DNA of 64,000 bases, taken from positions 130,936 to 194,935 of the forward strand of contig CAMOEI010000001.1 of the NCBI GenBank assembly GCA_946612115.1, read 5' to 3'. Position 1 is the first letter of the stretch; each line of letters begins with the position of its first letter. A program made the translations under genes and the position numbers. The notes under the pieces are model-generated. The model was not told the origin of the DNA and ran no database searches. It saw nothing but the letters and a program-made list of their open reading frames with translations. Positions 13,507 to 59,171 of this stretch are shown piece after piece. The stretch is from an uncultured Bacillales bacterium (GTDB lineage: Bacteria; Bacillota_I; Bacilli_A; RFN20; CAG-826).

Positions 13507-13582
13507 ATCAAAATTGTAATCAGTAATGTTTATAGATGCAAATTATGTTGTCTAAAAAACTTCTTTATCTAATAATAAAAGC

Positions 13583-15421
13583 ATGGAAACATTCTCTAAA
13601 GACGAGACAACTTTTAAAGATGAGGCTTTATTAGAACCATTAGATTTTTATAAGTCTCAACTAAAAGACGCTTTTCACGATAACGCGGAAGAATATTTTG
13701 ATAAACTCACAAAAAAATCAAAGATTGATGTCGAAGCTAATCGACTTGCTTGTAAAAAATATTACGAAGAATGTAAGTCAGTTGATTCTTTGAAAAAAGA
13801 TAAAAGTGGAAAAGTTGGTTTAAAGGCTCTATTTATCGTCTTTCTCGTCTTTTTAGCGATAGCGATAACTATTATCATTACCTTGACATTTACTAATCCA
13901 GGATTACTCCATTTAGCGGTTTCTATCGCAGTTCCTATAGGAGCGGCGGGATTAATCGCTTTATGTATTGTTGGTATTGTTAAACAAAACAAATTAATTT
14001 CAGGATTAAATGAAGAAATCGATAAACATAACGGAATTGCTAGCAAATGCAAAGATGAGGCAAGCCAATTAATCGCAGGATTAAATAGACTCTTTGAGTC
14101 TAATATGGCGGTTCATCTCATGTCTAAAACCACTCCAGTCGTGGATTTAGATCAAGATTTTGATCCGGAGAAATATTCCTATTTACACGAAAAATATGGT
14201 TATGAAACATCTAATAGAAAAGATGAATCCATTCTTTTTGTTCAATCAGGTCATATCTTAGGCAACCCTTTCATCATCGAAAGAGTCTATAACCAAAACA
14301 TGGTTAATCATGTCTACACTGGCACTTTAACTATTTCATGGACTGAAAGAGTGAGCAACGGAAAAGGTGGCTATACAACTGTAGTGAGAACACAGACATT
14401 AACCGCTCATGTGACCGCACCTTTACCAAATTATTGGACGAGCACGAGATTAATTTTTGGTAGTGAAGCCGCTCCTAGATTATCTTTTTCTAGACATCCT
14501 ACTGGGCACGGAAATGACGATGATAAAGCCTTAGAAAGATACGTTAAGAAATTCGATAAGGAATTAGATAAAAAAGTCGCGAAAGATTTAAAAGATGGAA
14601 ATGCCTCTTTTACGAGATTATATAACGAAACATTTGAAGCTTTATTTAACGCTCTAGATAGAGATAATGAAACTGAGTTTAGACTTCTTTTCACCCCTCT
14701 TGCTCAAAAGAATATGATTAATCTAATTAGAGATGTTGATAATATCGGTTATGGTGATGACTTCTCTTTTATAAAGAGAAAAGAGCTTAATTATATCAAC
14801 GCAAGTCATTTAAACGCTTCAAAAACGCTTGATTATGGACCTGAAAATATCCGCCATTTTGACTATGATATCGTTCGCTCTAATTTTATTAATTACTGCG
14901 ATACATATTGCAAGGAAATCTATTTCGCTTTAGCCCCGTTAATTTGCATTCCGTTATATCAACAACATAAAACTAGAGAATATATTTATAACGGACAATT
15001 TGGTCATAATATTACTCAAGCCGAAGCTGAAAGCGCGGCTAATAAACATAGTTGGAATTTATTTAAACATCCGGCAACTAGAAGTTTAGGTGTTATCTTA
15101 AAGAGTCGATTTGAAAAGGTAAACGAAACAGTGGATGAATGTATCATTACCGCTCATTCATTTTCAGGCACTGATCGAGTGACTTATGTTTCGGTTTATG
15201 GAGGAGATGGACATTATCATCAAGTTCCTGTTCACTGGGTGGAATATAATCCAATCAGTCAAGATACTTGCTTTGCTATAGGTAGAGCAAAAGAAGATAA
15301 TTATGTCGACTTCTCCGATAAATATACCGCTGGAGATTATAATAAATTATTATCTCGCTACAATATTCAAGATACTGTATTATATAGAAAAGGGTTATAT
15401 TCTTTCGTTAAGAAAGATTAA
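13583..15421 (+). CDS. large membrane protein of unknown function (soluble N-term, 2 TM at about aa 80-135, 470-aa C-terminal domain); LemA-associated
   Basis: 612-aa ORF with strong hydrophobic hairpin ALFIVFLVFLAIAITIIITL...AVSIAVPIGAAGLIALCIVGIV. No domain recognised by eye. Directly upstream of lemA with a 32-nt gap. Confidence 0.5.
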   Translation: METFSKDETTFKDEALLEPLDFYKSQLKDAFHDNAEEYFDKLTKKSKIDVEANRLACKKYYEECKSVDSLKKDKSGKVGLKALFIVFLVFLAIAITIIITLTFTNPGLLHLAVSIAVPIGAAGLIALCIVGIVKQNKLISGLNEEIDKHNGIASKCKDEASQLIAGLNRLFESNMAVHLMSKTTPVVDLDQDFDPEKYSYLHEKYGYETSNRKDESILFVQSGHILGNPFIIERVYNQNMVNHVYTGTLTISWTERVSNGKGGYTTVVRTQTLTAHVTAPLPNYWTSTRLIFGSEAAPRLSFSRHPTGHGNDDDKALERYVKKFDKELDKKVAKDLKDGNASFTRLYNETFEALFNALDRDNETEFRLLFTPLAQKNMINLIRDVDNIGYGDDFSFIKRKELNYINASHLNASKTLDYGPENIRHFDYDIVRSNFINYCDTYCKEIYFALAPLICIPLYQQHKTREYIYNGQFGHNITQAEAESAANKHSWNLFKHPATRSLGVILKSRFEKVNETVDECIITAHSFSGTDRVTYVSVYGGDGHYHQVPVHWVEYNPISQDTCFAIGRAKEDNYVDFSDKYTAGDYNKLLSRYNIQDTVLYRKGLYSFVKKD

Positions 15422-15453
15422 CAATACATTTACACATTATAGGAGGAAATATA

Positions 15454-16116
15454 ATGGCTAATGAATTAGATGAATTAACTGGTCCTGTTAATAAAGAAGG
15501 ACGAGATGTTAACGTTATCGAAAAACAATTAAAAGTGGAGATGACCACTGGATTAAAGGTCCTCAATGTTGTCTGTATCTTCCCTGGAGTGCTTTTACTT
15601 GGCTTGCCAACAATCATTTGGTTATTTAAAAAAGCGAAGGCAAAAGAACACTTCCTCAAGTTACAACAAAAGATTCAACATGACGCCTCTCAAATCGATA
15701 ACTATTTAGAACAGCGAGTGATGATTTTACAAAACGTTGCTAAATTACTTGATAAGGCAATTGATTTAGATAAATCAACATTCACAGAAATCGCTAAACT
15801 TAGAAGCGGTGGAAATCTTAATGACGCGGCAGCGGGAATCGATTCTGTTAATAAAGCGATTAACGTTCAACTTGAAGCTTATCCTGATTTAAGAAGTCAT
15901 GGAGAAATCGCTGATGCGATGCAACAAAACTCTTATTTGCAAAAAGAGATTACTGCAGCTAGAGAAGTCTATAACGACACAGTTGCTCAGTGGAATAGAG
16001 ATATCGAAACTTGGGGCGCGAAAAAATATGTGGCCGCAAGAGATGGCTATCACACCAGAATTCCATTTACAACTAGTAGCGAAATTAAACAAGCTGCACG
16101 TGGCACATTTTTCTAA
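15454..16116 (+). CDS. lemA: LemA family protein
   Basis: Single N-proximal TM followed by LemA-domain motifs (LEAYPDLRS, AAREVYNDTVAQWNRDIETW). RBS AGGAGG. Confidence 0.8.
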   Translation: MANELDELTGPVNKEGRDVNVIEKQLKVEMTTGLKVLNVVCIFPGVLLLGLPTIIWLFKKAKAKEHFLKLQQKIQHDASQIDNYLEQRVMILQNVAKLLDKAIDLDKSTFTEIAKLRSGGNLNDAAAGIDSVNKAINVQLEAYPDLRSHGEIADAMQQNSYLQKEITAAREVYNDTVAQWNRDIETWGAKKYVAARDGYHTRIPFTTSSEIKQAARGTFF

Positions 16117-16134
16117 TATATAAGGAGAACAAAA

Positions 16135-16705: not shown

Positions 16706-16736
16706 AGGAGCAAATTTATTGCTCCTTTTTCTTTTA
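16706..16736 (+). terminator. rho-independent terminator after rubrerythrin
   Basis: Perfect 8-bp stem aggagcaa / ttgctcct followed by ttttctttt. Confidence 0.7.
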
Positions 16737-16754: not shown

Positions 16755-17987
16755 ATGGGAACTCCATTAGCGGAATTAATTAGACCTTCATCACTAGATG
16801 AAATGGTGGGACAAGAACACTTATTCAATAAGAATAGTTTATTTAGAAAGATGATTTCTAAAAACATTATTCCGAATATGATTTTTTATGGTCCTCCTGG
16901 AGTGGGCAAGACTACAGTCGCTAATATAATCGCCAAAAACACTGAGATGTTACTTTGTAAACTTAACGGAACCACCGCAAGTTTAGACGATGTTAAAAAA
17001 GTGATTGATGAATCAAAAAGTGTTTTCGCAGGTAAGGGAGTTTTACTTTATTTAGATGAAATCCAATACTTCAATAAAAAGCAGCAGCAATCTTTATTAG
17101 AGTACGTTGAAAAAGGACTAATTACCTTAATTGCTTCAACAACTGAAAACCCATATTTTTATATCTATCCCGCTTTATTATCTAGATGTAATGTTTTTGA
17201 ATTTAAAGCGATTACCACAAAAGATATCAAAAAAGGATTAAAAAGAATTGTTGAATTAGAGAAAATCAAGATTGATGAGGATGCTTTAGACTTATTAAGT
17301 CTATCTTCTAATGGAGATATGAGAAAAGCGGTCAACAATCTAGAATTTGTTCATAACGCTTTAGGAAGTAAACAAATTAGAAAAGTGGACGTTGACCAAA
17401 TAGTGGATAAAGCCCATATCGTCTACGATAAAAGCGAAGATAAACATTATGATCATTTAAGTGCACTAATGAAATCCTTAAGAGGAAGCGATCCAGATGC
17501 AGCGATTTTCTATATGGCCAAGATGCTTGAAGCAGGCGATTTACAAGCGGTTTGTAGAAGAATATTATGCTCAGTAAATGAAGATGTTGGTTTAGCCTAC
17601 CCTTCATTAATTCCAATCGTCAAGTCTTGCGTTGATACCGCCCTTCAACTTGGAATGCCAGAAGCTAAACTTCCTTTAAGTAATGCCGTTATTTTAATTG
17701 CTACTGCACCAAAAAGTAATAGCGCGTATCTAGCCTATGCTAAAGCGGTTGAAGACATTAATATGGGTAAAGGAGTAGGAGTGCCTAGACAACTTCAAAA
17801 CACCCACTTCGACGGGGAAGATGCTTTAGTGAAAGGTCAAAATTATTTATATCCTCATGACTATAAGAATCACTGGGTCAAACAACAATATTTGCCAGAT
17901 GATGTTAAAGATAGACATTATTACCTTTATGGTAATAACAAATTTGAACAAGCTTTAAAAGAATATTGGGAAAAGATTAAGAAATAA
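16755..17987 (+). CDS. rarA: replication-associated recombination protein A (AAA+ ATPase RarA/MgsA)
   Basis: PLAELIRPSSLDEMVGQEHL, Walker A GPPGVGKTT, and C-terminal MgsA helical domains. The ORF-track TTG at 16719 lies inside the terminator stem, so ATG 16755 is preferred. Confidence 0.8.
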   Translation: MGTPLAELIRPSSLDEMVGQEHLFNKNSLFRKMISKNIIPNMIFYGPPGVGKTTVANIIAKNTEMLLCKLNGTTASLDDVKKVIDESKSVFAGKGVLLYLDEIQYFNKKQQQSLLEYVEKGLITLIASTTENPYFYIYPALLSRCNVFEFKAITTKDIKKGLKRIVELEKIKIDEDALDLLSLSSNGDMRKAVNNLEFVHNALGSKQIRKVDVDQIVDKAHIVYDKSEDKHYDHLSALMKSLRGSDPDAAIFYMAKMLEAGDLQAVCRRILCSVNEDVGLAYPSLIPIVKSCVDTALQLGMPEAKLPLSNAVILIATAPKSNSAYLAYAKAVEDINMGKGVGVPRQLQNTHFDGEDALVKGQNYLYPHDYKNHWVKQQYLPDDVKDRHYYLYGNNKFEQALKEYWEKIKK

Positions 17988-18892
17988 TGGATAGTTTAAA
18001 AAGTTTACTCGATCAAAAGAAATATGATTTAGTGCTTACCTTAACTGAAGGTAGCAAATCTCCAAATGACTTATTTTATCGAATAAGCGCTTTTATCTAT
18101 TTAGGTAAATATGAAGATGCTTTATATGTCATTCAAGATAATCAATCAATATTAGAGACAAATCTAGTAAGCTTAATTTCCGCTCATATCAATTTACTTT
18201 GCATCTTAGGAAGATTCGAACAAGCTTATAGCACCCTGGATTATTACAATAACCTACCTTATCAGTCTCAAGCCGTGGAAGAAATCTTAAGAAAAATGCC
18301 TCAAGTCATCGCTTTAGAAGAAAAGAAAAATTCTCAAGTTAAATATTACGATGATGAACAAGTTGAACAAATGCTCTCAAGCAATATCAGTGAAGACGTC
18401 CTTCTCGGATTAGATATTGTTAGAAAAAGAGATGTTTTATCTTTCCTCCCATTTTTAGAAAAAGTGATGCTTAATTTTCCTAAGCAATCAATTAGAAACT
18501 ACACCTTGATGCTTTTAGTGCAAAAAGAAGTCGATCGAAATATCAAAATTCTTCATCAGGGAGAAATTATTGAAGTAAATCCTAAATTATTAACTGCTCC
18601 ATTTACCTCGATTACATTTAATGAAGTAATTCGTAATTTTGACCGTGAGTTTAAAGATCCAACATTATCTCAAACCGCCACACAATTATTTTCAGAATAT
18701 TCCTTATATCTATATCCTCGAGACTATAAATACACCGCAAACGAATTAACTGGCATCTTTTATCTCATCGCCAAAGAATATATTAACGATCCAGTATTCG
18801 AGTTAGAAGATTACTGTGATACTAATGGTTTAGATATCTATAAGATATCTAGTGCGATTAAGGAAATTAAAGATATCATCGAAGATTTCTAA
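17987..18892 (+). CDS. hypothetical soluble protein (301 aa), translationally coupled to rarA
   Basis: ATG overlaps the rarA stop (TAATGG). Helical, TPR-like N-terminal region. No recognisable motif. Confidence 0.5.
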   Translation: MDSLKSLLDQKKYDLVLTLTEGSKSPNDLFYRISAFIYLGKYEDALYVIQDNQSILETNLVSLISAHINLLCILGRFEQAYSTLDYYNNLPYQSQAVEEILRKMPQVIALEEKKNSQVKYYDDEQVEQMLSSNISEDVLLGLDIVRKRDVLSFLPFLEKVMLNFPKQSIRNYTLMLLVQKEVDRNIKILHQGEIIEVNPKLLTAPFTSITFNEVIRNFDREFKDPTLSQTATQLFSEYSLYLYPRDYKYTANELTGIFYLIAKEYINDPVFELEDYCDTNGLDIYKISSAIKEIKDIIEDF

Positions 18893-23218: not shown

Positions 23219-23254
23219 TGTAGATATTTATTATTTTTTTAGTATAATAAATGC

Positions 23255-23458
23255 GTTCGATGAATTAGAGGAGTAATCAAAACTTCTTCTTATAGAGAGC
23301 TAGGGACGGTGGAAGCCTAGTAGAAAGGTTTGATGAAGGTCGCTAAGGAGAACTGATTCTAATAATTTAGAGTAATGAAGTGCTAGTGAAATATCACTAG
23401 AACTAAGGTGGTACCACGTTAATCGCGTCCTTAGAAATAAGGACTTTTATTTTATTTA
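23255..23458 (+). promoter_or_regulatory. T-box riboswitch leader of valS (promoter -10 TATAAT at 23243-23248; T-box sequence; terminator/antiterminator)
   Basis: Conserved T-box sequence aactaAGGTGGTACCACGtt at 23399-23417. Intrinsic terminator gtcctta-gaaa-taaggac plus T-run at 23426-23455. A GTC (Val) codon at about 23339 in the putative specifier region. Lies in the 250-nt untranslated gap before valS. Confidence 0.7.
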
Positions 23459-23468
23459 GGAGGGTCTT

Positions 23469-26057
23469 ATGTTAGAAAAAAGATATTCCCCAAAAGATGT
23501 TGAAGCGGGTAAATATGAAACCTGGAAATCAAAAGGTTACTTTACCGCTGGAGATAAAAGTAAACAGCCATTTTCTATGGTTATTCCTCCACCAAACGTC
23601 ACTGGTAAATTACATTTAGGTCACGCTTGGAACACAACTATTCAAGATATCATTGCCCGATATAAAAAGATGAAGGGCTATGATGTTTTATGGCTTCCAG
23701 GAATGGATCACGCTGGCATTGCTACCCAAGCAAAAGTTATGCAAAAGCTAGTTTCTATGGGAGTGGATGTCACTAAAATTACTAGAGAAGAATTCTTAAA
23801 ATACGCTTGGGAATGGAAAGCAGAATACGCAGAAAATATTCACCAGCAATGGGCGAAAATGGGCTTAATGCTCGACTTTAGTCGAGAAAGATTTACTTTA
23901 GACGAAGGACTTAATCTCGCTGTTAGAAGAGTGTTCGTCGATTTATATCAAAAAGGGCTCATTTATCAAGGAGAAAGAATTATCTCTTGGGATCCAGTCC
24001 AACAAACAGCTTTAAGCAATATCGAAGTCATTCACCAAGATGATGAAGGCTATATGTATTACTTCAAATATCATCTCGTTGATAGCGATGAATATATCGA
24101 AGTAGCGACAACTAGACCAGAAACAATGTTTGGAGATGTCTGTGTCTGTGTCAATCCAAAAGATCCTCAATATACTCATATTCACGGTAAAAAAGTGATC
24201 AATCCTGCAAACGGAGAAATCATTCCAATTATTTGTGATGAATATGTTGAAATCGGTTTTGGAACAGGAGCGATGAAATGTACTCCTGCTCATGACCCAA
24301 ATGACTTTATCATCGGTAAAAAATATGGTTTAGAAATGCCAATCATCTTTAATAAAGATGCAACGATGAATGAGAAGTGCGGCAAATATCAAGGAATGGA
24401 TCGATTTGTCTGTCGAGAAGCCTTGTTAAAAGATATTGATTCTCGAGGCGATTTTATCAAAAAAGAAAAGATCGTTCACGCGGTTGGACACTCCGAAAGA
24501 AATAACTGTGTTGTTGAACCAATGCTTTCAAAACAATGGTTTGTCAAAATGAAACCATTAGCGCAAGCGGCCATCGACGCTCAAAAGAATGAAAACTATG
24601 TTAATTTCGTTCCAAAAAGATTTGAGCATACATTCCTCCAATGGATGGAAAACATCGAAGACTGGTGCATTTCTCGTCAATTGTGGTGGGGTCATAGAGT
24701 CCCAGCTTGGACTAACAAAGTTACTGGTGAAGTTTTAGTGGCGATGGAAGCTCCTAAAGATATTGAAAACTGGGAACAAGATAGCGATGTCTTAGATACT
24801 TGGTTTTCTAGTGGATTATGGCCGTTTTCCACATTGGGTTGGCCAAATGAAACCGAAGATTATAAGAGATATTTCCCAACCTCAGTGTTAGTTACTGCCT
24901 ACGACATTATTTTCTTCTGGGTTAGTAGAATGATTTTCCAATCACTTAATATTACTGAGAAAAAACCATTTGAGAATGTAGTCATTCACGGACTTGTCCG
25001 TGATGAAAAAGGTCGTAAGATGTCTAAATCACTAGGTAACGGTATTGATCCAATTGAAGTTATCGATCAATACGGTGTTGATGCGCTTAGATATTTCTTA
25101 ACGACTAATTCCACTCCAGGACAAGACATGAGATATATCGATGAAAAAGTCTCTAGTAGTGCAAATTATTTAAACAAGATTTGGAACTCTGCTAGATATG
25201 TTTTAAGCGTCATCCCAGAAGATTATAAAGAAGTGGAGTTAGATCCAAAGAAATTAACTAGTGTTGACCGCTGGATTTTAAATAGACTAATGATGACGAT
25301 TAAAAATGTCACAAACAACATGGAGAAGTACGATTTCAATGCCGCTAGCAGCCACTTATATAACTTCGTCTATGATGATTTCTGCTCTCAATATCTAGAA
25401 ATGAGTAAAGTCAAACTCAATAGTGACAACGAATTTGAAATTAATCAAACTAGAACAATCTTATTGAAATGTCTTAAAGACATTATCTTACTCATTTATC
25501 CTTACACTCCATTTATCGCTGAAGAATTATATCAAAATCTTCCAACTCACTTAGAAAGCATCATGCTTGAAACTTATCCAGTCGTTGAGAAGAAATTTGT
25601 CTCTAAATTAAGTGATAACGAAGTGAACTTATTATTCGATTTTATTAAAGAAGTTAGAAACTATAAGATCGTTAACGGTTTATCTCCTAATGCGAATCTA
25701 GATTTAACAATCGGATTAAAGATTGAAGTCAGCGATGATTTCTATCTCTATTTGAATAGATTCACCTTTACCGAAGTTAAAACAGCAAAAGAGCCATTAA
25801 GCGGAAGTGGAGAAATATTCTCTTATCCATTTGGTAGCTTGCTCATCTCCTCGGGAGCGAATAAAGAAGAGATGATTTCTAAACTACAAAAGCAAATCGA
25901 AGTCGAAGAAAGTGAAATTTCTCGAGGCGAAAAAATGCTTTCAAATCCAGGCTTCTTAGCCAAAGCCCCAAAGGAAAAAGTGGAGTCTGAAAAAGAAAAA
26001 CTAGCTCTCCACAAAGCCAACTTAGCGAGCTTAAAAGAAAAATTATCAAAAATTTAA
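23469..26057 (+). CDS. valS: valyl-tRNA synthetase
   Basis: HIGH (PPPNVTGKLHLGHAW) and KMSKS motifs. 862 aa with C-terminal coiled-coil. RBS GGAGGG. Confidence 0.95.
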   Translation: MLEKRYSPKDVEAGKYETWKSKGYFTAGDKSKQPFSMVIPPPNVTGKLHLGHAWNTTIQDIIARYKKMKGYDVLWLPGMDHAGIATQAKVMQKLVSMGVDVTKITREEFLKYAWEWKAEYAENIHQQWAKMGLMLDFSRERFTLDEGLNLAVRRVFVDLYQKGLIYQGERIISWDPVQQTALSNIEVIHQDDEGYMYYFKYHLVDSDEYIEVATTRPETMFGDVCVCVNPKDPQYTHIHGKKVINPANGEIIPIICDEYVEIGFGTGAMKCTPAHDPNDFIIGKKYGLEMPIIFNKDATMNEKCGKYQGMDRFVCREALLKDIDSRGDFIKKEKIVHAVGHSERNNCVVEPMLSKQWFVKMKPLAQAAIDAQKNENYVNFVPKRFEHTFLQWMENIEDWCISRQLWWGHRVPAWTNKVTGEVLVAMEAPKDIENWEQDSDVLDTWFSSGLWPFSTLGWPNETEDYKRYFPTSVLVTAYDIIFFWVSRMIFQSLNITEKKPFENVVIHGLVRDEKGRKMSKSLGNGIDPIEVIDQYGVDALRYFLTTNSTPGQDMRYIDEKVSSSANYLNKIWNSARYVLSVIPEDYKEVELDPKKLTSVDRWILNRLMMTIKNVTNNMEKYDFNAASSHLYNFVYDDFCSQYLEMSKVKLNSDNEFEINQTRTILLKCLKDIILLIYPYTPFIAEELYQNLPTHLESIMLETYPVVEKKFVSKLSDNEVNLLFDFIKEVRNYKIVNGLSPNANLDLTIGLKIEVSDDFYLYLNRFTFTEVKTAKEPLSGSGEIFSYPFGSLLISSGANKEEMISKLQKQIEVEESEISRGEKMLSNPGFLAKAPKEKVESEKEKLALHKANLASLKEKLSKI

Positions 26058-27084: not shown

Positions 27085-27215
27085 TAATTATATCTTATGA
27101 TATATTACTTTCGTTGTCGCCTCACTAGCTACAACCGCATAGAAGAGGTTTTCAAAACTTTAACGAAGTTACCTTCATAGCGAGTCCTTAGTGAAATCTC
27201 AAAAAAGGAGGGACA
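27085..27215 (+). promoter_or_regulatory. candidate ribosomal-protein L21 leader (autoregulatory 5' UTR of the rplU-prp-rpmA operon)
   Basis: About 130-nt structured untranslated region immediately upstream of rplU. An L21 leader occupies this position in Bacillota. Not verified against a covariance model. Confidence 0.35.
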
Positions 27216-32020: not shown

Positions 32021-34720
32021 ATGAGAAGACTTTGGGCACATATCATCATCATATTTACAGCTTTAGTCGCTGTGTTTGCTTTTACTCCAAATTTAATCAA
32101 GCAAATCAGCACTAATGGAAATTACGAACAACGTCGTCGTTTCACTTATCAATTAACTCAAAGAGAGGAAATCGATGAGGACGACAAACCAAAAGAAATC
32201 ACAGAGAATTCCGCTAAAGAAATGGCGAAGACTATGGAATCACGCTTAATCAAATACGGCGTCACTTCATATGAAATCACCACCAGTGGAAGCGATATTG
32301 TCGATATCACCTATAAGGCTGATGCAGATCAATACACTCAAATCTCCAATGTTTTGACATCCTCTGGATCTTTTGCCCTTGTTAACTCAAATAATGATTT
32401 AGTCGAAGGATCAACCTTCTTAAGAGGAAGTGCCTACCTCAAAAATGTCCAAGTCAACGAATACCCAACTGTTATCATCCCAATCAAAACCGACTCCACC
32501 GAGTGGGAAGCTCTTATTACAGGTGCTAAAGAACATCCTGAAAGTGAAACCACTGGAGAAGGAGAAGAGGCTGAAACCACCGAAAACGCAGTTTTATATT
32601 TATTAAGAAACTATCAAAAAGGTGATACCTATCAAACTCTCACCGAAACAAATAAACTGGCCGAAAAAACTTTATTAAAGTTTACCTTCGCTCCAGATAA
32701 TGAAGATGAACTTTATTACGATAGCAATAAGAATTCTTTATCCCAAGTTTGTGGATTTAGTGATTCTAACGGAAACGGCTATGCCGATCCTAGCGAAGTG
32801 AGCGCTGCTTTTAACCAAGCTGACTACTTATTAAATTTATTACACACCTCAGCCTTAGATTATGATGTCAAATGTATTAGAGGCTTAGAAAGTGGAACAG
32901 AGATGTATGTCGACGCTAAAGTTGAAGAAGTTATTTCTTATTCTAAGATTAACTGGAATCACACTTTAACTGCTGTCTTAGCCGGTATTGTTATTACTGC
33001 TTTACTTTTAGTAGTTTTCTATCGCTTAGGAGCGTTAAATGCTTTAGGAACAACATTATTATCAGTCTTCCTCGCTTTCTTATTTATGGTGAAAGCCGGA
33101 CTAGAATATAACACCTTAGCGGTTGTTGGATTAATTCTCGTCGCTATTGTTAGCTTAATCAGCAATATTATTTATCTAAATAAACTCAAAGATGAATCCT
33201 ATAAAGGACGTCTACTTAAAAAGGCTAATGCTGAAGCCAGCAAGAAGAGTTTACTCCCAATTATCGATATTCATATCGTTAGCATTGCCGTTAGCTTAAT
33301 GTGCTACTTATTAGGAGGAGCATCTTTACACTCATTTGCTTCTGTCTTCCTTCTAGGAAGCTTAGCTTCTTTAATCATTAACACATTAGGAACCAAAGGT
33401 TCAATGTGGCTAGCCACTAACGCGACAGGATTAACCGGAAAATATGAATGTTTCGGAATCGATAGCGCTCACGTTCCAAATCACATGGCAGAAGAAAAAC
33501 AAACCTATTTTGGCAATTACGCTGATAAAAACTTTGAAAAGAGTAAGAAGCCTGTTGCTTTAGTAGCCTCTATCTTATTTGTTGCTTCTGTTGTTGGAAT
33601 GATCGTCAGCGGAGTCTTAACTGGTGGAAATATGCTCAAACCAGTTTCTAGTAAAGTAGTGGGCAATGAAATTTATTTCACTAACACCATCCAACTCATC
33701 GACGAAGATAGCAAATCAAAACTCGACGATGAATCATTCAAACGTATTTTAAGCTATGTCTATATCCAAAAAGACGCTAATACGCCAATTGATCAAGCTA
33801 ATCCAGATACATATGTCACTTTAGATACCTATGTCTCTAGCTTTAAATCATTTACAACAAGCGAAAGCAAAACTGTTGATTCTTTAACAAAGAATTATCA
33901 AACAACATATTATGTTATTTCACTAAAATCAGTTTTAAATCAAAATGTTACTACTCAAGTTAAAGATGACACAACTACTGAAGCGATGAGTCTTGAAACT
34001 GTTTTAAATAACTTATTTGAACTTGAACCAGATCACTTATTCAATAAAGATGACACCAAGATTGAATTAAAGAAAATTACCACTCATGTTAATAAGAGTG
34101 AAACCGATTGGTCAAAGGTCTTACTTGCAACAAGTATTGCTATTGCAATATCTACAGTCTATTTATTACTCAGATATCGCTTATCTCGCGGTTTAGCAAG
34201 TCTTGTTTTCCCTGTTATTACAAGTGTGACAGTTGCTGGTTTACTAGTTTTATTAAGCCTACCAGGACTCGCTATTCCAAGCGGAGCGTTTGTCGCTTTA
34301 CCAATTACAACCTTAATTACTTACTTCTTCGTTATCATCTTCGCCAATAAAGAGCGAGAAATGATTCTCGAAGAGAGAAATAGAGATAACACAGTGGAAT
34401 ACCGTTTAGACGTTTCTAAACGCGCTTTAGGTATCAGCTATACCCCAATTATTATTTCCGCAGTTATCGCTTGCTATTTATTCATCAATTTCTTCGGATT
34501 TGGTCCAGCAAGCGCCAGCTACATCTATTTAGTTGGTTTACTCGGAATGATTATTGCTCTTGTTTATTTCTCAATCCTTTACGTTCCAGTAAGTAACTTC
34601 TTCTTCAAATTATTTAAGGGTGTTCAATTCCCTAAACTTCAAAGAAAAGCAAAGAAAGAGAAAGTTAAACAAAAATCCGCTGAGCCTGAAGAAGCAATCT
34701 TCATCGGAATCAACGACTAA
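32021..34720 (+). CDS. secDF: fused protein-export membrane protein SecDF
   Basis: 899 aa. Two RND-like 6-TM bundles (..GALNALGTTLLSVFLAFLFMV.. and ..YRLSRGLASLVFPVITSVTVAGLL..) separated by periplasmic domains. Single fused polypeptide, as in Mollicutes and many Bacillota. RBS GGAGG. Confidence 0.75.
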   Translation: MRRLWAHIIIIFTALVAVFAFTPNLIKQISTNGNYEQRRRFTYQLTQREEIDEDDKPKEITENSAKEMAKTMESRLIKYGVTSYEITTSGSDIVDITYKADADQYTQISNVLTSSGSFALVNSNNDLVEGSTFLRGSAYLKNVQVNEYPTVIIPIKTDSTEWEALITGAKEHPESETTGEGEEAETTENAVLYLLRNYQKGDTYQTLTETNKLAEKTLLKFTFAPDNEDELYYDSNKNSLSQVCGFSDSNGNGYADPSEVSAAFNQADYLLNLLHTSALDYDVKCIRGLESGTEMYVDAKVEEVISYSKINWNHTLTAVLAGIVITALLLVVFYRLGALNALGTTLLSVFLAFLFMVKAGLEYNTLAVVGLILVAIVSLISNIIYLNKLKDESYKGRLLKKANAEASKKSLLPIIDIHIVSIAVSLMCYLLGGASLHSFASVFLLGSLASLIINTLGTKGSMWLATNATGLTGKYECFGIDSAHVPNHMAEEKQTYFGNYADKNFEKSKKPVALVASILFVASVVGMIVSGVLTGGNMLKPVSSKVVGNEIYFTNTIQLIDEDSKSKLDDESFKRILSYVYIQKDANTPIDQANPDTYVTLDTYVSSFKSFTTSESKTVDSLTKNYQTTYYVISLKSVLNQNVTTQVKDDTTTEAMSLETVLNNLFELEPDHLFNKDDTKIELKKITTHVNKSETDWSKVLLATSIAIAISTVYLLLRYRLSRGLASLVFPVITSVTVAGLLVLLSLPGLAIPSGAFVALPITTLITYFFVIIFANKEREMILEERNRDNTVEYRLDVSKRALGISYTPIIISAVIACYLFINFFGFGPASASYIYLVGLLGMIIALVYFSILYVPVSNFFFKLFKGVQFPKLQRKAKKEKVKQKSAEPEEAIFIGIND

Positions 34721-51486: not shown

Positions 51487-52417
51487 TTAATTCTCCATAA
51501 GTATTATTTGTGATGAGATTGACGAAATCTTGGATATCTTGTTTAGCATCTATCGCTTTGCGATAACCAAGTCCTAATCCGTTGTTATTGTTTTTGGTAG
51601 CTTTATAAATAACTTCAGCAGTGAAGCCCATCTTGTGTGCTTGTTCGGTTTCGCTTCCAAGTCCTTTAACATAGTTTCTTAAAGTGCCTGGAGTCTTTAA
51701 CCCCGCTTTAATATCACCTTCGATATTTTCCAAGAATTCATTAACCTTAGCCTTATCAGCATTTTTATTTACGAAGATTGACGCTTGCATGATTTGTTTA
51801 CCGCCACTTCTGATATTAAAAGCATCTCTAGCTGATTCATAAATCTTAGAAACACTATTAGTGTTTGTGACAATTGGTTCTGCGGTGAAGATATAATCGA
51901 GTTGAACAGTGGTGGTCTCGTCGACTTTATAATTTCCTCCGTTATTGATAGCCAGAGCGGTTTTATTGGCGGCGTCGACATCGTATAAATCTAATTCAAG
52001 ATTGCTATATAGATATTTAAAGACTTTGCCAGGGATATCAGTTGGTTGGAAATACATCACTTTATCTCCGTTATTTAAAACTCCATCATCATCTTTTCCG
52101 GTAGATAATAGATAGAAGTTTCCAAAGGAAACAGTTGCCGCAAGTAAGTAATTAGCGCCTTGTTTAATCTTTGTTAATCCTCCATGAGTTGGGGCGACAA
52201 TAATGTCATATTCATTAGTCATGAATTTAGGCATTAAAGCATTTTGTGGATCGGTTGTTGTTTCTAATGCATTTGCGTATCCAGATAACGCCACAGCAGG
52301 TGCACCTGTAGGGGCGAGCATTTTAAGATCTGTTTTATGGTAGGAAACATTGTTTCCAGTATTGGTACACGCTGATAATGTAGCGATTAATCCAAGTAAT
52401 AATAATTGTTTTTTCAT
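51464..52417 (-). CDS. ABC transporter substrate-binding lipoprotein (NMT1/SsuA-like)
   Basis: Lipobox signal peptide MKKQLLLLGLIATLSAC. Periplasmic binding fold. Confidence 0.7.
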   Translation of the reverse strand: MKKQLLLLGLIATLSACTNTGNNVSYHKTDLKMLAPTGAPAVALSGYANALETTTDPQNALMPKFMTNEYDIIVAPTHGGLTKIKQGANYLLAATVSFGNFYLLSTGKDDDGVLNNGDKVMYFQPTDIPGKVFKYLYSNLELDLYDVDAANKTALAINNGGNYKVDETTTVQLDYIFTAEPIVTNTNSVSKIYESARDAFNIRSGGKQIMQASIFVNKNADKAKVNEFLENIEGDIKAGLKTPGTLRNYVKGLGSETEQAHKMGFTAEVIYKATKNNNNGLGLGYRKAIDAKQDIQDFVNLITNNTYGELSEEVIYQ

Positions 52418-52464
52418 AGTTTTTTTACCTCGTTGTTATTTTACATAAATAACTATATAATAAG

Positions 52465-52480
52465 TGTGATTTAAATCACG
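52465..52480. promoter_or_regulatory. CRP/FNR-type operator TGTGA-N6-TCACg in the divergent SBP / crp-like intergenic region
   Basis: TGTGATTTAAATCACG matches the TGTGA-N6-TCACA consensus in 9 of 10 arm positions. It overlaps a TATAAT -10 box (52456-52461) and ends 4 nt before the Crp/Fnr gene ATG. About 48-63 nt upstream of the SBP start on the opposite strand. Confidence 0.55.
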
Positions 52481-52483
52481 CAT

Positions 52484-53083
52484 ATGGAAAATATTCTCTT
52501 ATCCTTATCAAAAGAAGAACTTAAAAGTCTCAAAATAGTGGAACTCCATAAAGGAACAACTCTATTTTTAGAAGGTGACGAGTGTAAAAATGTCGGAATA
52601 GTTAAATCTGGTGAGTTGATAATTAAGTCATTTTTAAAAAGTGGAAAAGAGATTACATATAATGTAATAGAACCTGGTTCAATGTTTGGCAATAATTTAA
52701 TTTTCTCTTCGACGCCTAAATATCGAGGAGACGTTGTTGCCGAAAAAGATTCAGAAATATATCTTTTGAGCAAAGAAACATTGTTAGGACTGTTATCAAA
52801 AAATCAAAAATTCCTTTTAGCGTATCTGAATTATCAATCAGATTTTTCTAAGTCGCTCAATTTACAGATCAAATTATTGAGTTTAGACTCCGCAGAAGAC
52901 AGATTTGAATATTATCTTACATTTAATAAAAATATAATTAGATATAAAAGCATCTCTGAATTAGCTAGAAGATTGTTTTTATCTAGAGAAACATTAAGTA
53001 GATTAATTAGTCAGATGAGCAAAAATAAAGTTATTCATATTAAAGATAAAACAATCACGCTCATGGTGGATAAACAAAATTAG
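52484..53083 (+). CDS. Crp/Fnr family transcriptional regulator
   Basis: N-terminal cNMP-binding beta-roll (LFLEGDECKNVGIVKSGEL) and C-terminal HTH (SISELARRLFLSRETLSRLISQM). Confidence 0.8.
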   Translation: MENILLSLSKEELKSLKIVELHKGTTLFLEGDECKNVGIVKSGELIIKSFLKSGKEITYNVIEPGSMFGNNLIFSSTPKYRGDVVAEKDSEIYLLSKETLLGLLSKNQKFLLAYLNYQSDFSKSLNLQIKLLSLDSAEDRFEYYLTFNKNIIRYKSISELARRLFLSRETLSRLISQMSKNKVIHIKDKTITLMVDKQN

Positions 53084-53097
53084 TAGATAATTAGTAG
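53080..53097 (-). repeat. two TTAGTAG (reverse complement CTACTAA) heptamers phased 11 bp at the Crp/Fnr gene stop
   Basis: TTAGTAG at 53080 and at 53091. Related to the TACTAAT arrays elsewhere in the window. Confidence 0.4.
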
Positions 53098-53107
53098 GTG
53101 GAAAATT

Positions 53108-53140
53108 CCAGGGAATGTGGAAAATTTCCCTGGTTTTTAT
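53108..53140 (+). terminator. rho-independent terminator after Crp/Fnr gene
   Basis: ccagggaa-tgtggaaaat-ttccctgg followed by tttttatttg. Confidence 0.65.
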
Positions 53141-53263
53141 TTGTGTGAATATGTCCAAATACTTAAAATTATATTGTTTTCTATTTCCTTATACTTTGTA
53201 TACTTTTACTTTTAGTTAACATAATGGTAATTATGCGAAGTTATTATATTTGAGATAAAGAAA

Positions 53264-53293
53264 GGATGTGAATTGCCCACATCCATTCTTTTT
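53264..53293. terminator. terminator hairpin downstream of nadD/yqeK (readable on both strands)
   Basis: ggatgtg-aattgcc-cacatcc followed by attcttttt on +; preceded by a T-rich stretch on the - strand. Confidence 0.5.
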
Positions 53294-53313
53294 AGCCAAT
53301 TACGCTTTCGCTT

Positions 53314-54408
53314 CTAGAGATAATAATCTTTTAAACAGGCTAGCGTTAATCTATTTCTATAATCGATTCTATGTCGATCATAATATTCAATATTGCTTGT
53401 CATTACAGCTTTAAAGCCATCTTTTAAACTACTTTCCATAGCATTTATTAGTGATTTTGAGTTAAATCCGCGAGTTGGTTCTATTTTATCTGCACAATAC
53501 ACTATTCTTGCTACCTCAGAGATGTTTCCATTACCTGTCGTGTGGAATTTTATAGCCTCTAAGACCACCGGATCTTTGACTCCGAACTCCTTTTCGGCTA
53601 AATATGCACCAACAAATTGATGATAAAGGTCTTCTTGGATATCCAAATACTCAGGAAAATATTTTTCCACTATTTTGTTTTGCTCTACTTGAGGCATTTC
53701 TTTGCCAACATCATGTAATAAAGCAGCCAAATATGCCTTCTTAGCGTCTTTTAATCCATTTGCTAATGCAATCTCGTAAGACAATCTAGCAACGCTCATA
53801 GAGTGAGTAAAACGATATTCATTCATCATCGTACTTATTTTATTAATAAAATAAAGTTTATGGTCAATCATGTAGTTAATCACAGAATCAGTAGTTTCTA
53901 AAGATGAACCATTTCTAATTTCTGTGGAACTAATATCAATGTCTTCGCCTTTTACCGCCTTCATATTGAAGCGCTTTATATTAGTGGCAAGTTCTTCGCT
54001 ATTTAGACGGCCATAATAAATAACCTGCGCTAATTTAGCAATCTCATCAGCGTCTTTCCATCTATGGAAACTATCAACTTGATCTCCGCCAATTAGAAGA
54101 AAGAGTTTATCTTCTGGATACATTTCTTTGAAATGTTTAACTGTATCTATCGAATAATTTACATCATTAGGAAGCTTAGCTTCGTAATCCGAAACAAAGA
54201 AAGTATTTTCCTCGCCAAAATCTTTAATGGCAAGTTCCACCATTTTGAGTTTATCTTCTATTGGTGCGCTTTCATTTTTCCAAACAGAAATCTTTGCAGG
54301 AATAAAAAAGACAACTGCATCAAATTGCTCACTTGCCTTTTTTGCCATATTTAAGTGGCCTAGATGAATTGGATCAAAGGCCCCACCGAATAAAATGATA
54401 TTTTTCAT
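53314..54408 (-). CDS. nadD: nicotinate-nucleotide adenylyltransferase fused to HD-domain phosphohydrolase YqeK
   Basis: N-terminal (H/T)xGH nucleotidyltransferase motif FGGAFDPIHLGHL. C-terminal HD domain (LHDVGKE.., YCADKIEP). 364 aa. Confidence 0.8.
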   Translation of the reverse strand: MKNIILFGGAFDPIHLGHLNMAKKASEQFDAVVFFIPAKISVWKNESAPIEDKLKMVELAIKDFGEENTFFVSDYEAKLPNDVNYSIDTVKHFKEMYPEDKLFLLIGGDQVDSFHRWKDADEIAKLAQVIYYGRLNSEELATNIKRFNMKAVKGEDIDISSTEIRNGSSLETTDSVINYMIDHKLYFINKISTMMNEYRFTHSMSVARLSYEIALANGLKDAKKAYLAALLHDVGKEMPQVEQNKIVEKYFPEYLDIQEDLYHQFVGAYLAEKEFGVKDPVVLEAIKFHTTGNGNISEVARIVYCADKIEPTRGFNSKSLINAMESSLKDGFKAVMTSNIEYYDRHRIDYRNRLTLACLKDYYL

Positions 54409-56526: not shown

Positions 56527-59169
56527 TTAGTCGTCTAGATCATCAAAGATTGAGATCTGTTCGAAGGTTGTTTCTTCCTTTTTTTCTGGTTTATTTTCAA
56601 TCTTGATTTCTTCAGCTTCTTCGGTCTCATTTTCCGCTATCTCTTCATCTAATGGTTTAGCTGTTTCTTTGACTAAAATTGGATGTGAGATATTGTCCTT
56701 ACCAATATTTTCGATATTGGTGTCAAAAGCAAAGGAGATTGATTGTTTTGCTAATACCTCATCAATGTTCTTCTTGGCGTATTGAGCTTCTGTATTCTTT
56801 AAATCATCGAGAACCAAAGTCTTTGTAGTACGGTCATTAAGATAAAGATTTATCTTAAGAGGTTCATCTTTATAAACCTTTAATACAGAGATAATGTTGT
56901 GTGGCTCACCTTTGAAACATTGTAAGATAGTTTGCGGTTTACCTAATCTATTCGTGCGTGTGAATTTATTAATATCAGTTACACGCATATGCGCTTTATT
57001 TGTCAAAAGAACAATTTTATTGTTCTTATCTTCCTCGTCGAAAGATAATAGACCTGCTAAGTAGGCATTACCTAATCCAGAGAAGGATTTAACTCCACCG
57101 GCTTTGCTTCCTAAAACAGTAAGCTCGTTTTCGTTGAATAATGAACATCTACCATTATTAGTTACAACTAATAAATCACTGTTTCCGGAGATTAATCTAA
57201 TTCCAACAATCGAATCTCTAGATAAGAGTTTCATGTATTTGACTGGACGAGAATGTTTAGATAAATCAAGCGAAGAAACCGCCATTCTCTTAATTTGACC
57301 AAACTTGGTCAAGATAGCGAGATATAAATCATCACGTTTTTCGCTTAAAGACATAACCTTGATGATTTTTTCTCCACTAGCTAATGTTGTAAATTCATTA
57401 ACGTGGCTCCCTTCATCTTTCCATTTAGTGTCTGTCAATTTATGAACAGGGATGGTCAAATAGTTTCCTTGATTTGTAAAACAAATCAAATAATCGGTTG
57501 TCATCGCTTTGCCGATTCCAACTAACATATCCCCATCTTTTAAGCCTGGTAGATCACCATTACTAGAAGAATAGCTTCTAATTGAGCTACGTTTCAAATA
57601 ACCATCATAACTAACAGAAACCATAACTTCTTCTTTGGCGATAAGCTCACGCTTATCAATTTCTTTAGTTTCGCCCTTTTCAATTATTTGAGTTCTTCTT
57701 TCGTCCCCATATTTTTCTGCAACAGCTTTTAAATCTTTGATTAAAACTCTATTGAGTTTTGCAGGATCTTCAAGAATTCCAGTTAAGGTTTCGATTTCTT
57801 TACTTAATTGTTTCTTTTCAGCTTCTAAAGTTAACTCATCAGTGTGGCTTAACTTATATAAAGGCATGGTCACAATTGCTTCAGCTTGTTCGTTAGATAA
57901 ACCGTATTTAGCAATTAAGTTGACCTTACTATCGGCCTTGTCTTTACTCTTTTTAATGATCTCGACAACCTCGTTGATGTTAAGGCTTGCTAAGATTAAT
58001 CCTTCAACGATATGAAGTCTATCTTGGCACTTCTTTAAATCATATTTACTCTTGCGAGTAACAACATCAACTTGGTGAGCAATATAAGCATCAACATAGT
58101 CGAGTAAATTTAATGTTCTAGGACGTCCATCAACAATCGCCACCATGTTTGCGGTATATCCACAGACAAGGTTCGTCTTCTTCATTAAATATTGTAAAAT
58201 CAAGTCCGCTTTCGCGTTCTTTTTAACGTCTATAACGATTCTGATTCCCTTGTAATCAGATTCATCTCTAACTTCAATAATTCCATCAATCGCTTTAGAG
58301 TGACGAATCTTATCAATTTCGAAAACTAATTGAATTTTCACCACTTTATAAGGAATTTCTGTGATGATAATTTGATTGCAATCTTTTTGTTCGACAATTT
58401 CAGTTTTGCCTGCAACTTCAATTCTTCCTCTTCCAGTTAAATAGATTGATTTGAGTCCTTCAGACTCATAAATAAATCCACCGCCTGGAAAATCAGGACC
58501 TTTAACAAATTCCATGAGCTCTTCACAAGTTGCAGTCTTGTGTCCAATACGATAAACAACGGCATCAATAACCTCCTTGAGGTTATGTGGTGGAATTTCA
58601 GTCGCTAAAGCAACCGCAATACCTTCAGTTCCGTTAACGAGTAAATTTGGGAATCTAGAAGGCAAAACAACTGGTTCGAATTCTGTATCATCGAAGTTAA
58701 GCTGCATATCTACAGTGTCTTTTTCGATATCTCTTACTAATTCGTTAGAAAGCTCACTTAATCTACTTTCAGTATAACGATAAGCTGCTGGAGAATCTCC
58801 ATCGATCGAACCATTATTACCTTGGAAGTCAATTAATGGGGCTCTCACTTTCCAATCTTGGCTCATTCTGGCTAACGCTTCATAAATTGAAGTATCGCCA
58901 TGTGGGTGATAAGTACCCATAACAGCACCAACTGTGTGAGCACATTTTTTTGTTGGTTTGTTAAAAGTGTTTCCACTTTTATACATTGAGAAAATAATAC
59001 GTCTTTGAACTGGTTTTAATCCATCTCTAACATCTGGGATAGCACGATCTTGGATGACATATTTAGCATAAGTTGCATATCTATCACCCATGACATCTTC
59101 AAGGGTTTCAACCGAAATATTCTCTTCGAATAAATCTTCTTGGACAGGAACTTCTTTTTTTCTTGCCAT
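56527..59169 (-). CDS. parC: type II topoisomerase A subunit; assigned topoisomerase IV ParC (GyrA not excluded)
   Basis: Catalytic Tyr region (..AAYRYTE), WHD/tower domains, beta-pinwheel C-terminal domain, acidic tail. Adjacent to a B subunit and divergent plsY, as in B. subtilis plsY-parE-parC. Confidence 0.7.
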   Translation of the reverse strand: MARKKEVPVQEDLFEENISVETLEDVMGDRYATYAKYVIQDRAIPDVRDGLKPVQRRIIFSMYKSGNTFNKPTKKCAHTVGAVMGTYHPHGDTSIYEALARMSQDWKVRAPLIDFQGNNGSIDGDSPAAYRYTESRLSELSNELVRDIEKDTVDMQLNFDDTEFEPVVLPSRFPNLLVNGTEGIAVALATEIPPHNLKEVIDAVVYRIGHKTATCEELMEFVKGPDFPGGGFIYESEGLKSIYLTGRGRIEVAGKTEIVEQKDCNQIIITEIPYKVVKIQLVFEIDKIRHSKAIDGIIEVRDESDYKGIRIVIDVKKNAKADLILQYLMKKTNLVCGYTANMVAIVDGRPRTLNLLDYVDAYIAHQVDVVTRKSKYDLKKCQDRLHIVEGLILASLNINEVVEIIKKSKDKADSKVNLIAKYGLSNEQAEAIVTMPLYKLSHTDELTLEAEKKQLSKEIETLTGILEDPAKLNRVLIKDLKAVAEKYGDERRTQIIEKGETKEIDKRELIAKEEVMVSVSYDGYLKRSSIRSYSSSNGDLPGLKDGDMLVGIGKAMTTDYLICFTNQGNYLTIPVHKLTDTKWKDEGSHVNEFTTLASGEKIIKVMSLSEKRDDLYLAILTKFGQIKRMAVSSLDLSKHSRPVKYMKLLSRDSIVGIRLISGNSDLLVVTNNGRCSLFNENELTVLGSKAGGVKSFSGLGNAYLAGLLSFDEEDKNNKIVLLTNKAHMRVTDINKFTRTNRLGKPQTILQCFKGEPHNIISVLKVYKDEPLKINLYLNDRTTKTLVLDDLKNTEAQYAKKNIDEVLAKQSISFAFDTNIENIGKDNISHPILVKETAKPLDEEIAENETEEAEEIKIENKPEKKEETTFEQISIFDDLDD

Positions 59170-59171
59170 AA

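Follow-up and report, generated by a model that had tools for sequence, protein, structure and literature searches.

In a 64,000-nucleotide (nt) stretch of the genome of an uncultured Bacillales bacterium (GTDB lineage Bacteria; Bacillota_I; Bacilli_A; RFN20; CAG-826), referred to below as the window (assembly GCA_946612115.1, contig CAMOEI010000001.1, positions 130,936 to 194,935), a gene for a 612-residue membrane protein lies directly upstream of a gene for a LemA-family protein. We find that the larger protein is a full-length member of NF046000, the MAG1210 family, which is named but uncharacterised, and that its gene and lemA almost certainly form a fixed, conserved and co-transcribed two-gene unit. 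Our overall reading, to which we give a probability of about 45%, is that the two proteins would be a membrane-bound, cytoplasm-facing pair acting on membrane organisation or cell shape. Both the family name and pairs of LemA with membrane partners were already known. What is new here is a LemA partner of a different type, with a predicted orientation opposite to that of the known partners and a fold that was unmatched in the libraries searched.

The 612-residue protein belongs to the MAG1210 family

The protein matched the NCBIfam model NF046000 with 580.8 bits against a cut-off of 275 (E = 2.8e-174), and the match ran from end to end, residues 17–566 aligning with profile positions 2–547 of 550. 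Ten divergent homologues scored 517–657 bits over the same span. The 612-residue protein matched no family in scans of Pfam and PHROG, and the PADLOC defence models matched neither this protein nor LemA. An earlier annotation of the window made without database searches (hereafter the original prediction) had found no assignable motif in the large C-terminal part of the protein, which holds for Pfam but not for NCBIfam; the peptide that it quoted, GTLTISWTERVSNGKGGYTTVVRTQTLTAHV, is found at residues 247–277. The name MAG1210, which we take to derive from a Mycoplasmopsis agalactiae locus tag, was mentioned in no paper of the literature searched, and no prior record of a fixed MAG1210–LemA pairing was found.

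The family is large. A word-indexed search returned at least 2165 homologous proteins, and an exhaustive profile search gave 1222 cluster representatives at 50% identity with E ≤ 0.001, including 622 with E ≤ 1e-30. Members come from rumen and gut metagenome-assembled genomes labelled Bacilli, Erysipelotrichaceae, Anaeroplasmataceae, Acholeplasmataceae and Haloplasmataceae, from Christensenellales-type Clostridia, and from the cultured Alteracholeplasma palmae and Acholeplasma granularum; NCBI records from A. granularum and Anaeroplasmataceae carry the name of the MAG1210 family. A second protein search, seeded with the homologue nearest to the NCBIfam model, reached Acholeplasma, with no Mycoplasma among the matches listed. 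Scanning metagenome DNA for the motif GDG-x4-VPV-x-W(TGA)-x-[DE]-Y yielded 10 stretches, none of them encoding a relative. Truncated homologues were considered as genes read with genetic code 4, and this was rejected: they are contig ends or frameshifts, with lemA downstream in all of them. No homologue was found by tblastn of 50,697 phage and 72,556 plasmid records, and the setting of the gene is chromosomal, among housekeeping genes. The only informative domain fusion among longer homologues occurs in an 801-residue protein (P0250), whose N-terminal extension of about 180 residues starts with a zinc ribbon (PF13240, residues 7–29).

lemA lies immediately downstream in every locus with room to show it

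To describe the gene neighbourhood we used the 80 best loci from species-representative genomes, in which the MAG1210 protein is 36–75% identical to that of the window. The open reading frames (ORFs) of each locus were searched with the window proteins, and all flanking ORFs were clustered into neighbour families. In 78 of the 80 loci lemA stood immediately downstream on the same strand. Of the remaining two, one has a frameshifted partner gene with lemA still adjoining it (L015) and the other ends inside the partner gene (L024), which gives adjacency in 79 of the 79 species-level loci with room to show it. Five more loci at 34–40% identity had the same arrangement (A. palmae J233, A. granularum, a metagenome-assembled genome of Clostridia and two metagenome contigs), bringing the total to 84 of 84 loci over an identity range of 34–75%. 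The pairing holds across Mollicutes-related Bacilli and some Clostridia. The original prediction had suggested a new LemA-associated module and had asked whether homologues might never lie beside lemA; these neighbourhoods strongly support the module, and the idea stands.

The two genes are also closely spaced. The distance between them had a median of 21 nt (range −44 to +83) and was at most 40 nt in 70 of the 79 loci; in the window it is 32 nt, and a consensus scan found no terminator-like site between the two genes. Beyond these two, no gene is conserved: the runner-up neighbour family occurs in 25 of the 80 loci, and no metabolic gene was a conserved neighbour among the clustered flanking ORFs. 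LemA was always better conserved than its partner (median identity 59% versus 41%), and the divergence of the two proteins was correlated (r = 0.93).

Both proteins are predicted to face the cytoplasm

The 612-residue protein contains two hydrophobic helices (approximate boundaries in table 1), TM1 and TM2, where TM denotes transmembrane, joined by a 7-residue uncharged loop, TNPGLLH. The sequence of the membrane helices is poorly conserved in the conservation profile. The region preceding them has conserved residues in alignment A1 (L16, E18, P19, Y23, K28, F31, H32, N34, N53 and Y60). Across 52 homologues, lysine plus arginine residues numbered on average 5.0 in the 15-residue stretch preceding TM1, 4.2 in that following TM2 and 0.7 in the intervening loop, whose median length is 10 residues. 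No signal peptide was found in the protein. Since the hairpin returns the chain to the side from which it started, the N-terminal region and the C-terminal domain would share one side of the membrane, and since positive charge is high on the flanks and low in the loop, that side is likely the cytoplasm. The zinc ribbon at the N-terminus of P0250, a domain expected in the cytoplasm, would fit this placement. A cytoplasmic N-terminus, a two-helix hairpin and an extracytoplasmic C-terminal domain had been proposed in the original prediction. The first two of these are retained; together with the third they contradict each other, and the charge counts favour a cytoplasmic domain.

The downstream gene encodes a genuine member of the LemA family. 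Its product matched PF04011 with 61.3 bits against a gathering threshold of 26.2, residues 78–213 covering profile positions 2–143 of 149, and a phmmer comparison matched residues 65–187 with chain A of PDB 2ETD, the LemA protein of T. maritima (E = 3.7e-7). It consists of a 35-residue N-terminal segment, a single TM helix (residues 36–58; nt 15559–15627) and the LemA helical domain. The mean lysine plus arginine count rises from 2.4 to 4.0 across the TM helix, the side after the helix being the richer in 66 of 78 orthologues. The helical domain is predicted from this to face the cytoplasm, with a signal that is moderate and weaker than that of the partner protein.

The C-terminal domain is well conserved and matches no fold in the libraries searched

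The AlphaFold2 (AF2) model of the full-length protein had a mean predicted local distance difference test score (pLDDT) of 83.6 and a predicted template modelling score (pTM) of 0.74. It contains a helix at residues 19–46, a long helical hairpin (50–104/111–168) whose tip is the membrane hairpin, and a mixed alpha/beta domain. Modelled by itself from 59 aligned sequences, the C-terminal domain reached a pLDDT of 88.2 and a pTM of 0.81. It has two beta meanders separated by helices, each with three very long strands: residues 215–225, 228–258 and 264–293 in the first (nt 14225–14461) and residues 505–514, 517–539 and 545–568 in the second (nt 15095–15286). The two meanders align weakly but in register (GxILGNPF with GVILKSxF, and the tips GKGG with GGDG; hhalign E = 0.095), and both hairpin tips are conserved and glycine-rich, a hint of an old internal duplication.

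Modelling followed by a structure search had been recommended with the original prediction, and it yielded a confident model of the C-terminal domain without a fold match in PDB or BFVD. In Foldseek searches of the full-length model and the C-terminal domain against PDB, and of the C-terminal domain against BFVD, no match had E < 0.01; the best had E = 0.013, and TM-scores were at most 0.18. We rejected the matches to pore toxins, MHC-I and CapZ as generic, since only extended hairpins or sheets were aligned. The sole hit of a profile search of PDB sequences was a designed TM protein, aligned at the membrane hairpin.

Most of the strongly conserved positions lie in this domain. In 259 sequences down to 31% identity, 50 positions were at least 95% conserved, 47 of them in the C-terminal domain, which is better conserved than the membrane hairpin. 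By our count about 24 of the 50 are polar, among them D190, S222, N228, R360, R367, Q375, D392 and D393, as well as K398, N403, H409, E483, N487, K507 and D518. Because so many invariant residues are polar, the domain may carry a specific binding or catalytic site.

Comparison with known LemA systems

The original prediction had noted that LemA proteins usually have a TPM-domain or HtpX-type partner and that this one was of neither type. This was borne out: neither type reaches Pfam thresholds, nor does DUF2207. TPM (PF04536) gave no match in Pfam and no Foldseek match in PDB with E < 0.01. LemA–TPM pairs resemble the present one in joining LemA to a neighbouring gene for a membrane-anchored partner. 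TPM partners are secreted and have a C-terminal anchor, whereas the MAG1210 protein has an N-terminal hairpin and a domain predicted to face inwards.

Conserved LemA–DUF2207 gene pairs have been reported (PMC12631010), and there too lemA stands beside a gene for a large membrane protein. DUF2207 proteins are described with their N-terminal domain outside the cell and their C-terminus inside (PMC10457818), whereas the large domain of MAG1210 is C-terminal, predicted to be cytoplasmic and of a different fold. When the 59 rows of a second alignment (A2) were scanned individually against Pfam, 53 of the 58 full-length homologues matched DUF2207_C (PF20990) over residues ~20–160 (profile positions ~74–205 of 247). 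All of these matches fell below the gathering score of 33 bits, the best reaching 27.4 bits, and the window protein itself gave no match to DUF2207_C at E up to 1. The N-terminal domain of DUF2207 (PF09972) was absent from the window protein and from the top families of the 59 rows. The similarity to DUF2207_C may reflect remote homology of the anchor module or, since other TM families also match below threshold, composition alone, and we do not claim membership. It would fit the idea that the helices and hairpin anchor are a shared LemA-facing module to which differing working domains are attached.

The one LemA-family protein linked to a cellular process is MamQ, which is individually essential for magnetosome formation and has been studied in magnetosome-membrane biogenesis (PMC4902198, PMC3905215). 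The window LemA matched the MamQ model NF040966 weakly (E = 2.6e-7, far below the cut-off). The two are not orthologous, MamQ has different partners, and no magnetosome genes lie near the window LemA.

A further parallel may lie in the minimal cell JCVI-syn3A, whose normal morphology requires each of genes 602, 604 and 605 along with ftsZ, sepF, 520 and 527 (bioRxiv 10.1101/2020.10.07.326892). Directly upstream of 604 lies 602, a pseudogene with a frameshift; the N-terminal portion that is expressed contains two TM helices (bioRxiv 10.1101/2020.10.07.326892). The 604 protein resembles PDB 2ETD (PMC9483919), as does the window LemA. Compared through the published description, both loci have a gene for a two-TM protein directly upstream of a gene for a single-TM LemA. 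They differ in that 602 is a frameshifted pseudogene and that the lipoprotein gene 605 has no counterpart in the window. Also, in M. bovis the locus tag of a 'putative membrane protein', MBOVPG45_0130, comes just before that of LemA (0131).

Gene 602 is probably homologous to the MAG1210 family. More tentatively, MAG1210–LemA could be the intact, full-length form of syn3A 602/604, an unrecognised membrane module for orderly scission that would be common to mycoplasmas, acholeplasmas and many uncultured gut Bacilli and Clostridia. If so, the continued need for the 602 pseudogene would make sense provided that LemA is engaged by the N-terminal helices and hairpin that it retains, and two of the four unexplained division genes of the minimal cell would gain a family and a structural model. 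The published interpretation of 604 as a GacS-type sensor would be corrected as well. The LemA family PF04011, represented by PDB 2ETD, has no relationship to the sensor kinase of Pseudomonas that formerly bore the name LemA. Two papers on syn3A read 604 as a LemA/GacS-type two-component sensor, which looks like a confusion of names.

A model for the MAG1210–LemA pair and its alternatives

From their sequences, the MAG1210 protein would be anchored by its two-helix hairpin, with the conserved N-terminal helices and the 443-residue C-terminal domain in the cytoplasm, and LemA by one helix, with its helical bundle likewise cytoplasmic. The two proteins would be made in coupled amounts and would assemble on the inner face of the membrane; we consider such a physical complex reasonably likely. 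Within it, LemA might serve as a conserved scaffold, while the MAG1210 domain, specific to the lineage, would do the work and carry the binding or catalytic site. By analogy with the systems above, the complex might control the organisation or curvature of the membrane and thereby cell shape and division, a role that would be most important in bacteria with little or no wall. A thesis cited in PMC12631010 is the source of the statement that LemA proteins restructure membranes. This role in membrane organisation or division is a tentative proposal.

Several points weigh against this picture. The contact between the MAG1210 protein and LemA is something that we infer, the link to division is drawn from shared architecture alone, and the syn3A phenotype, observed in a minimal cell lacking a wall, may not apply elsewhere. 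The topology derives solely from the positive-inside rule, which gives a moderate signal for LemA (4.0 versus 2.4), and one paper places the C-terminal domain of MamQ/LemA on the non-cytoplasmic, lumenal side (PMC3905215). Finally, an enzyme would account for the invariant polar residues no less well than a structural partner would. The C-terminal domain could indeed be an enzyme tethered to the membrane: a hydrolase or transferase, for instance, whose substrate might be inner-leaflet lipids, nucleotides or something bound by LemA, with LemA only its regulator or anchor. Such an enzyme would overlap and be compatible with the model above, differing from it in the seat of activity. The polar residues are spread over the motifs QSGxILGNPF, DRDNExEFRxLFTPLxQ, GDDFxFxK...N...H and ExxxN at a density typical of an active site, and the greater conservation of the domain relative to the hairpin points the same way. 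However, neither sequence nor fold matched any enzyme family in Pfam, NCBIfam or PDB, and metabolic genes are not among the conserved neighbours; we regard an enzyme as rather unlikely. An outward-facing domain, as originally predicted, would make the protein an envelope or surface sensor or an adhesin working with LemA, in the manner of TPM and the DUF2207 N-terminal domain. The TPM partners of LemA do have a large extracytoplasmic domain. So does DUF2207 (PMC10457818), and the lumenal placement of the LemA/MamQ domain (PMC3905215) also favours such an arrangement. Against it stand the charge distribution around the hairpin (5.0, 0.7 and 4.2 in the N-flank, loop and C-flank), the lack of a signal peptide, the need to export the conserved 81-residue N-terminal region too, the N-terminal zinc ribbon of P0250, five cysteines in the C-terminal domain, and the lack of a Foldseek match to PDB entries, TPM structures included. 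Taken together, these observations make an outward-facing domain improbable.

The long, Thr-rich beta hairpins of the domain are amphipathic and might insert into a membrane, as in a pore-former, a holin-like protein or a conflict or defence effector. The top Foldseek matches, none of them significant, were the hairpin stems of the perforin-2, CDTb, anthrax PA and lysenin pores; the hairpin region matched Phage_holin_3_6 below threshold in 30 of 58 homologues, and one NCBI record of a homologue is titled 'phage holin family protein'. Yet all Foldseek matches had E ≥ 0.013, those to pore toxins had TM-scores < 0.12 and probabilities < 0.6, and in the perforin-2 match (E = 0.013, TM-score 0.11, probability 0.14) long hairpins alone were aligned. 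The beta hairpins also sit within a confidently folded core (pLDDT 88–96), and the holin matches are confined to the TM hairpin, with a composition-driven score. Given also the lack of PADLOC matches, of homologues in phage and plasmid records and of any but a housekeeping setting, we hold this explanation to be very improbable. Equally remote is an oxidative-stress module working with the rubrerythrin encoded downstream, which the original prediction had taken as a hint of a stress or envelope role. In its favour, the rubrerythrin gene starts 18 nt past lemA, with its own ribosome-binding site AAGGAG at 16122–16127, and the only good terminator-like hairpin that a consensus scan found on the + strand lies 3′ of it, so that it is probably co-transcribed at this locus; a DUF2207 mutant of S. 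mutans is sensitive to acid and oxidative stress (PMC10457818). But rubrerythrin follows lemA in only 8 of the 79 loci and in the closest relatives (L001–L005) rarA comes directly after lemA. It is therefore a lineage-specific, variable insertion between lemA and rarA, not a conserved member of the cassette, and it says little about function.

LemA is a membrane protein found very widely among bacteria, and MamQ is the only member of its family tied to a cellular process (PMC4902198). A large family that is named but unstudied (at least 1222 clusters at 50% identity) emerges as an obligate partner of LemA, and MAG1210–LemA offers a clean, minimal two-gene system for LemA biology. It occurs in cultured Acholeplasma species, which makes it amenable to deletion and purification.

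Organisation of the locus

The sequence confirmed the coordinates and sizes of the two genes, the gap and shared strand, the membrane hairpin, and the LemA and reverse rubrerythrin neighbours, all as given in the original prediction (table 1). The 612-residue ORF begins with ATG and has no Shine-Dalgarno sequence before it. The close relatives L001, L002 and L004 have a −35/−10 pair in the corresponding place ahead of the start codon, and L010–L012 retain a −10-like box there. The promoter call is a consensus match; with only 6 nt between the promoter-like pair and the ATG, an arrangement that close relatives share, the partner gene is probably transcribed with a very short leader or none.

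Table 1. Features of the MAG1210–lemA locus, in window coordinates.
Feature	Position	Strand	Basis
Promoter-like site, TTGTCT, 17 nt, AATAAT	13548..13576	+	Consensus scan; ends 6 nt before ATG
MAG1210-family protein, LemA partner, 612 residues	13583..15421	+	ORF, NF046000, AF2 model
Predicted cytoplasmic N-terminal helical region, residues 1–81	13583..13825	+	Alignment A1, predicted helices, lysine/arginine-rich flank before TM1
Two-helix membrane hairpin, TM1 residues 82–103, TM2 residues 111–133	13826..13981	+	Hydropathy, charge counts
C-terminal domain, residues 170–612 (443 residues)	14090..15418	+	AF2 model, conservation; predicted cytoplasmic
Strong lemA ribosome-binding site, AGGAGG	15441..15446	+	Sequence; 7 nt before ATG, inside the 32-nt gap
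LemA-family protein, 220 residues	15454..16116	+	PF04011, PDB 2ETD match
Reverse (rubredoxin-first) rubrerythrin, 183 residues	16135..16686	+	Pfam Rubrerythrin and N-terminal rubredoxin-like domain
Terminator-like hairpin, 8-bp stem then T-run	16706..16736	+	Consensus scan; after rubrerythrin, at the end of the three-gene unit

Conservation of the window neighbours yggS, rarA, plsC and dagK is nearly confined to the closest relatives; plsC and dagK turn up again in a few more distant loci. As called, the rarA ORF starts at a TTG (16719) within the terminator hairpin, which spans 16706–16726. The RarA ORFs of relatives are about 410 residues long, and translation probably begins at the ATG near 16758 (MGTPLAEL...). 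A 301-residue ORF (17987–18892) overlaps the rarA stop by one base. It had no NCBIfam match at E up to 1e-10, lies directly 3′ of rarA in at least 16 related loci and is an uncharacterised gene linked to rarA.

Host and remainder of the window

An 899-residue SecDF-like protein (32021–34720) had its best match in NF046001, the mycoplasma-type 'SecDF_plasm' model (121 bits, cut-off 500), which fits a Mollicutes-related host. There were no cell-wall synthesis genes among the ten large ORFs annotated, nine of which lie in 30–62 kb, and no tRNA genes were found within the 64 kb. Two regulatory RNAs typical of Bacilli are present: a T-box leader (113.5 bits) at 23251–23435, upstream of an 862-residue ORF (23469–26057), and a ribosomal protein L21 leader (42.1 bits) at 27123–27198. 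The cumulative GC skew peaks near 52 kb (~52000–54000), where the large ORFs flip from the + to the − strand, and parC and parE lie just past the peak on the − strand (56527–61106). The region around 52000–54000 may therefore be that of the replication terminus.

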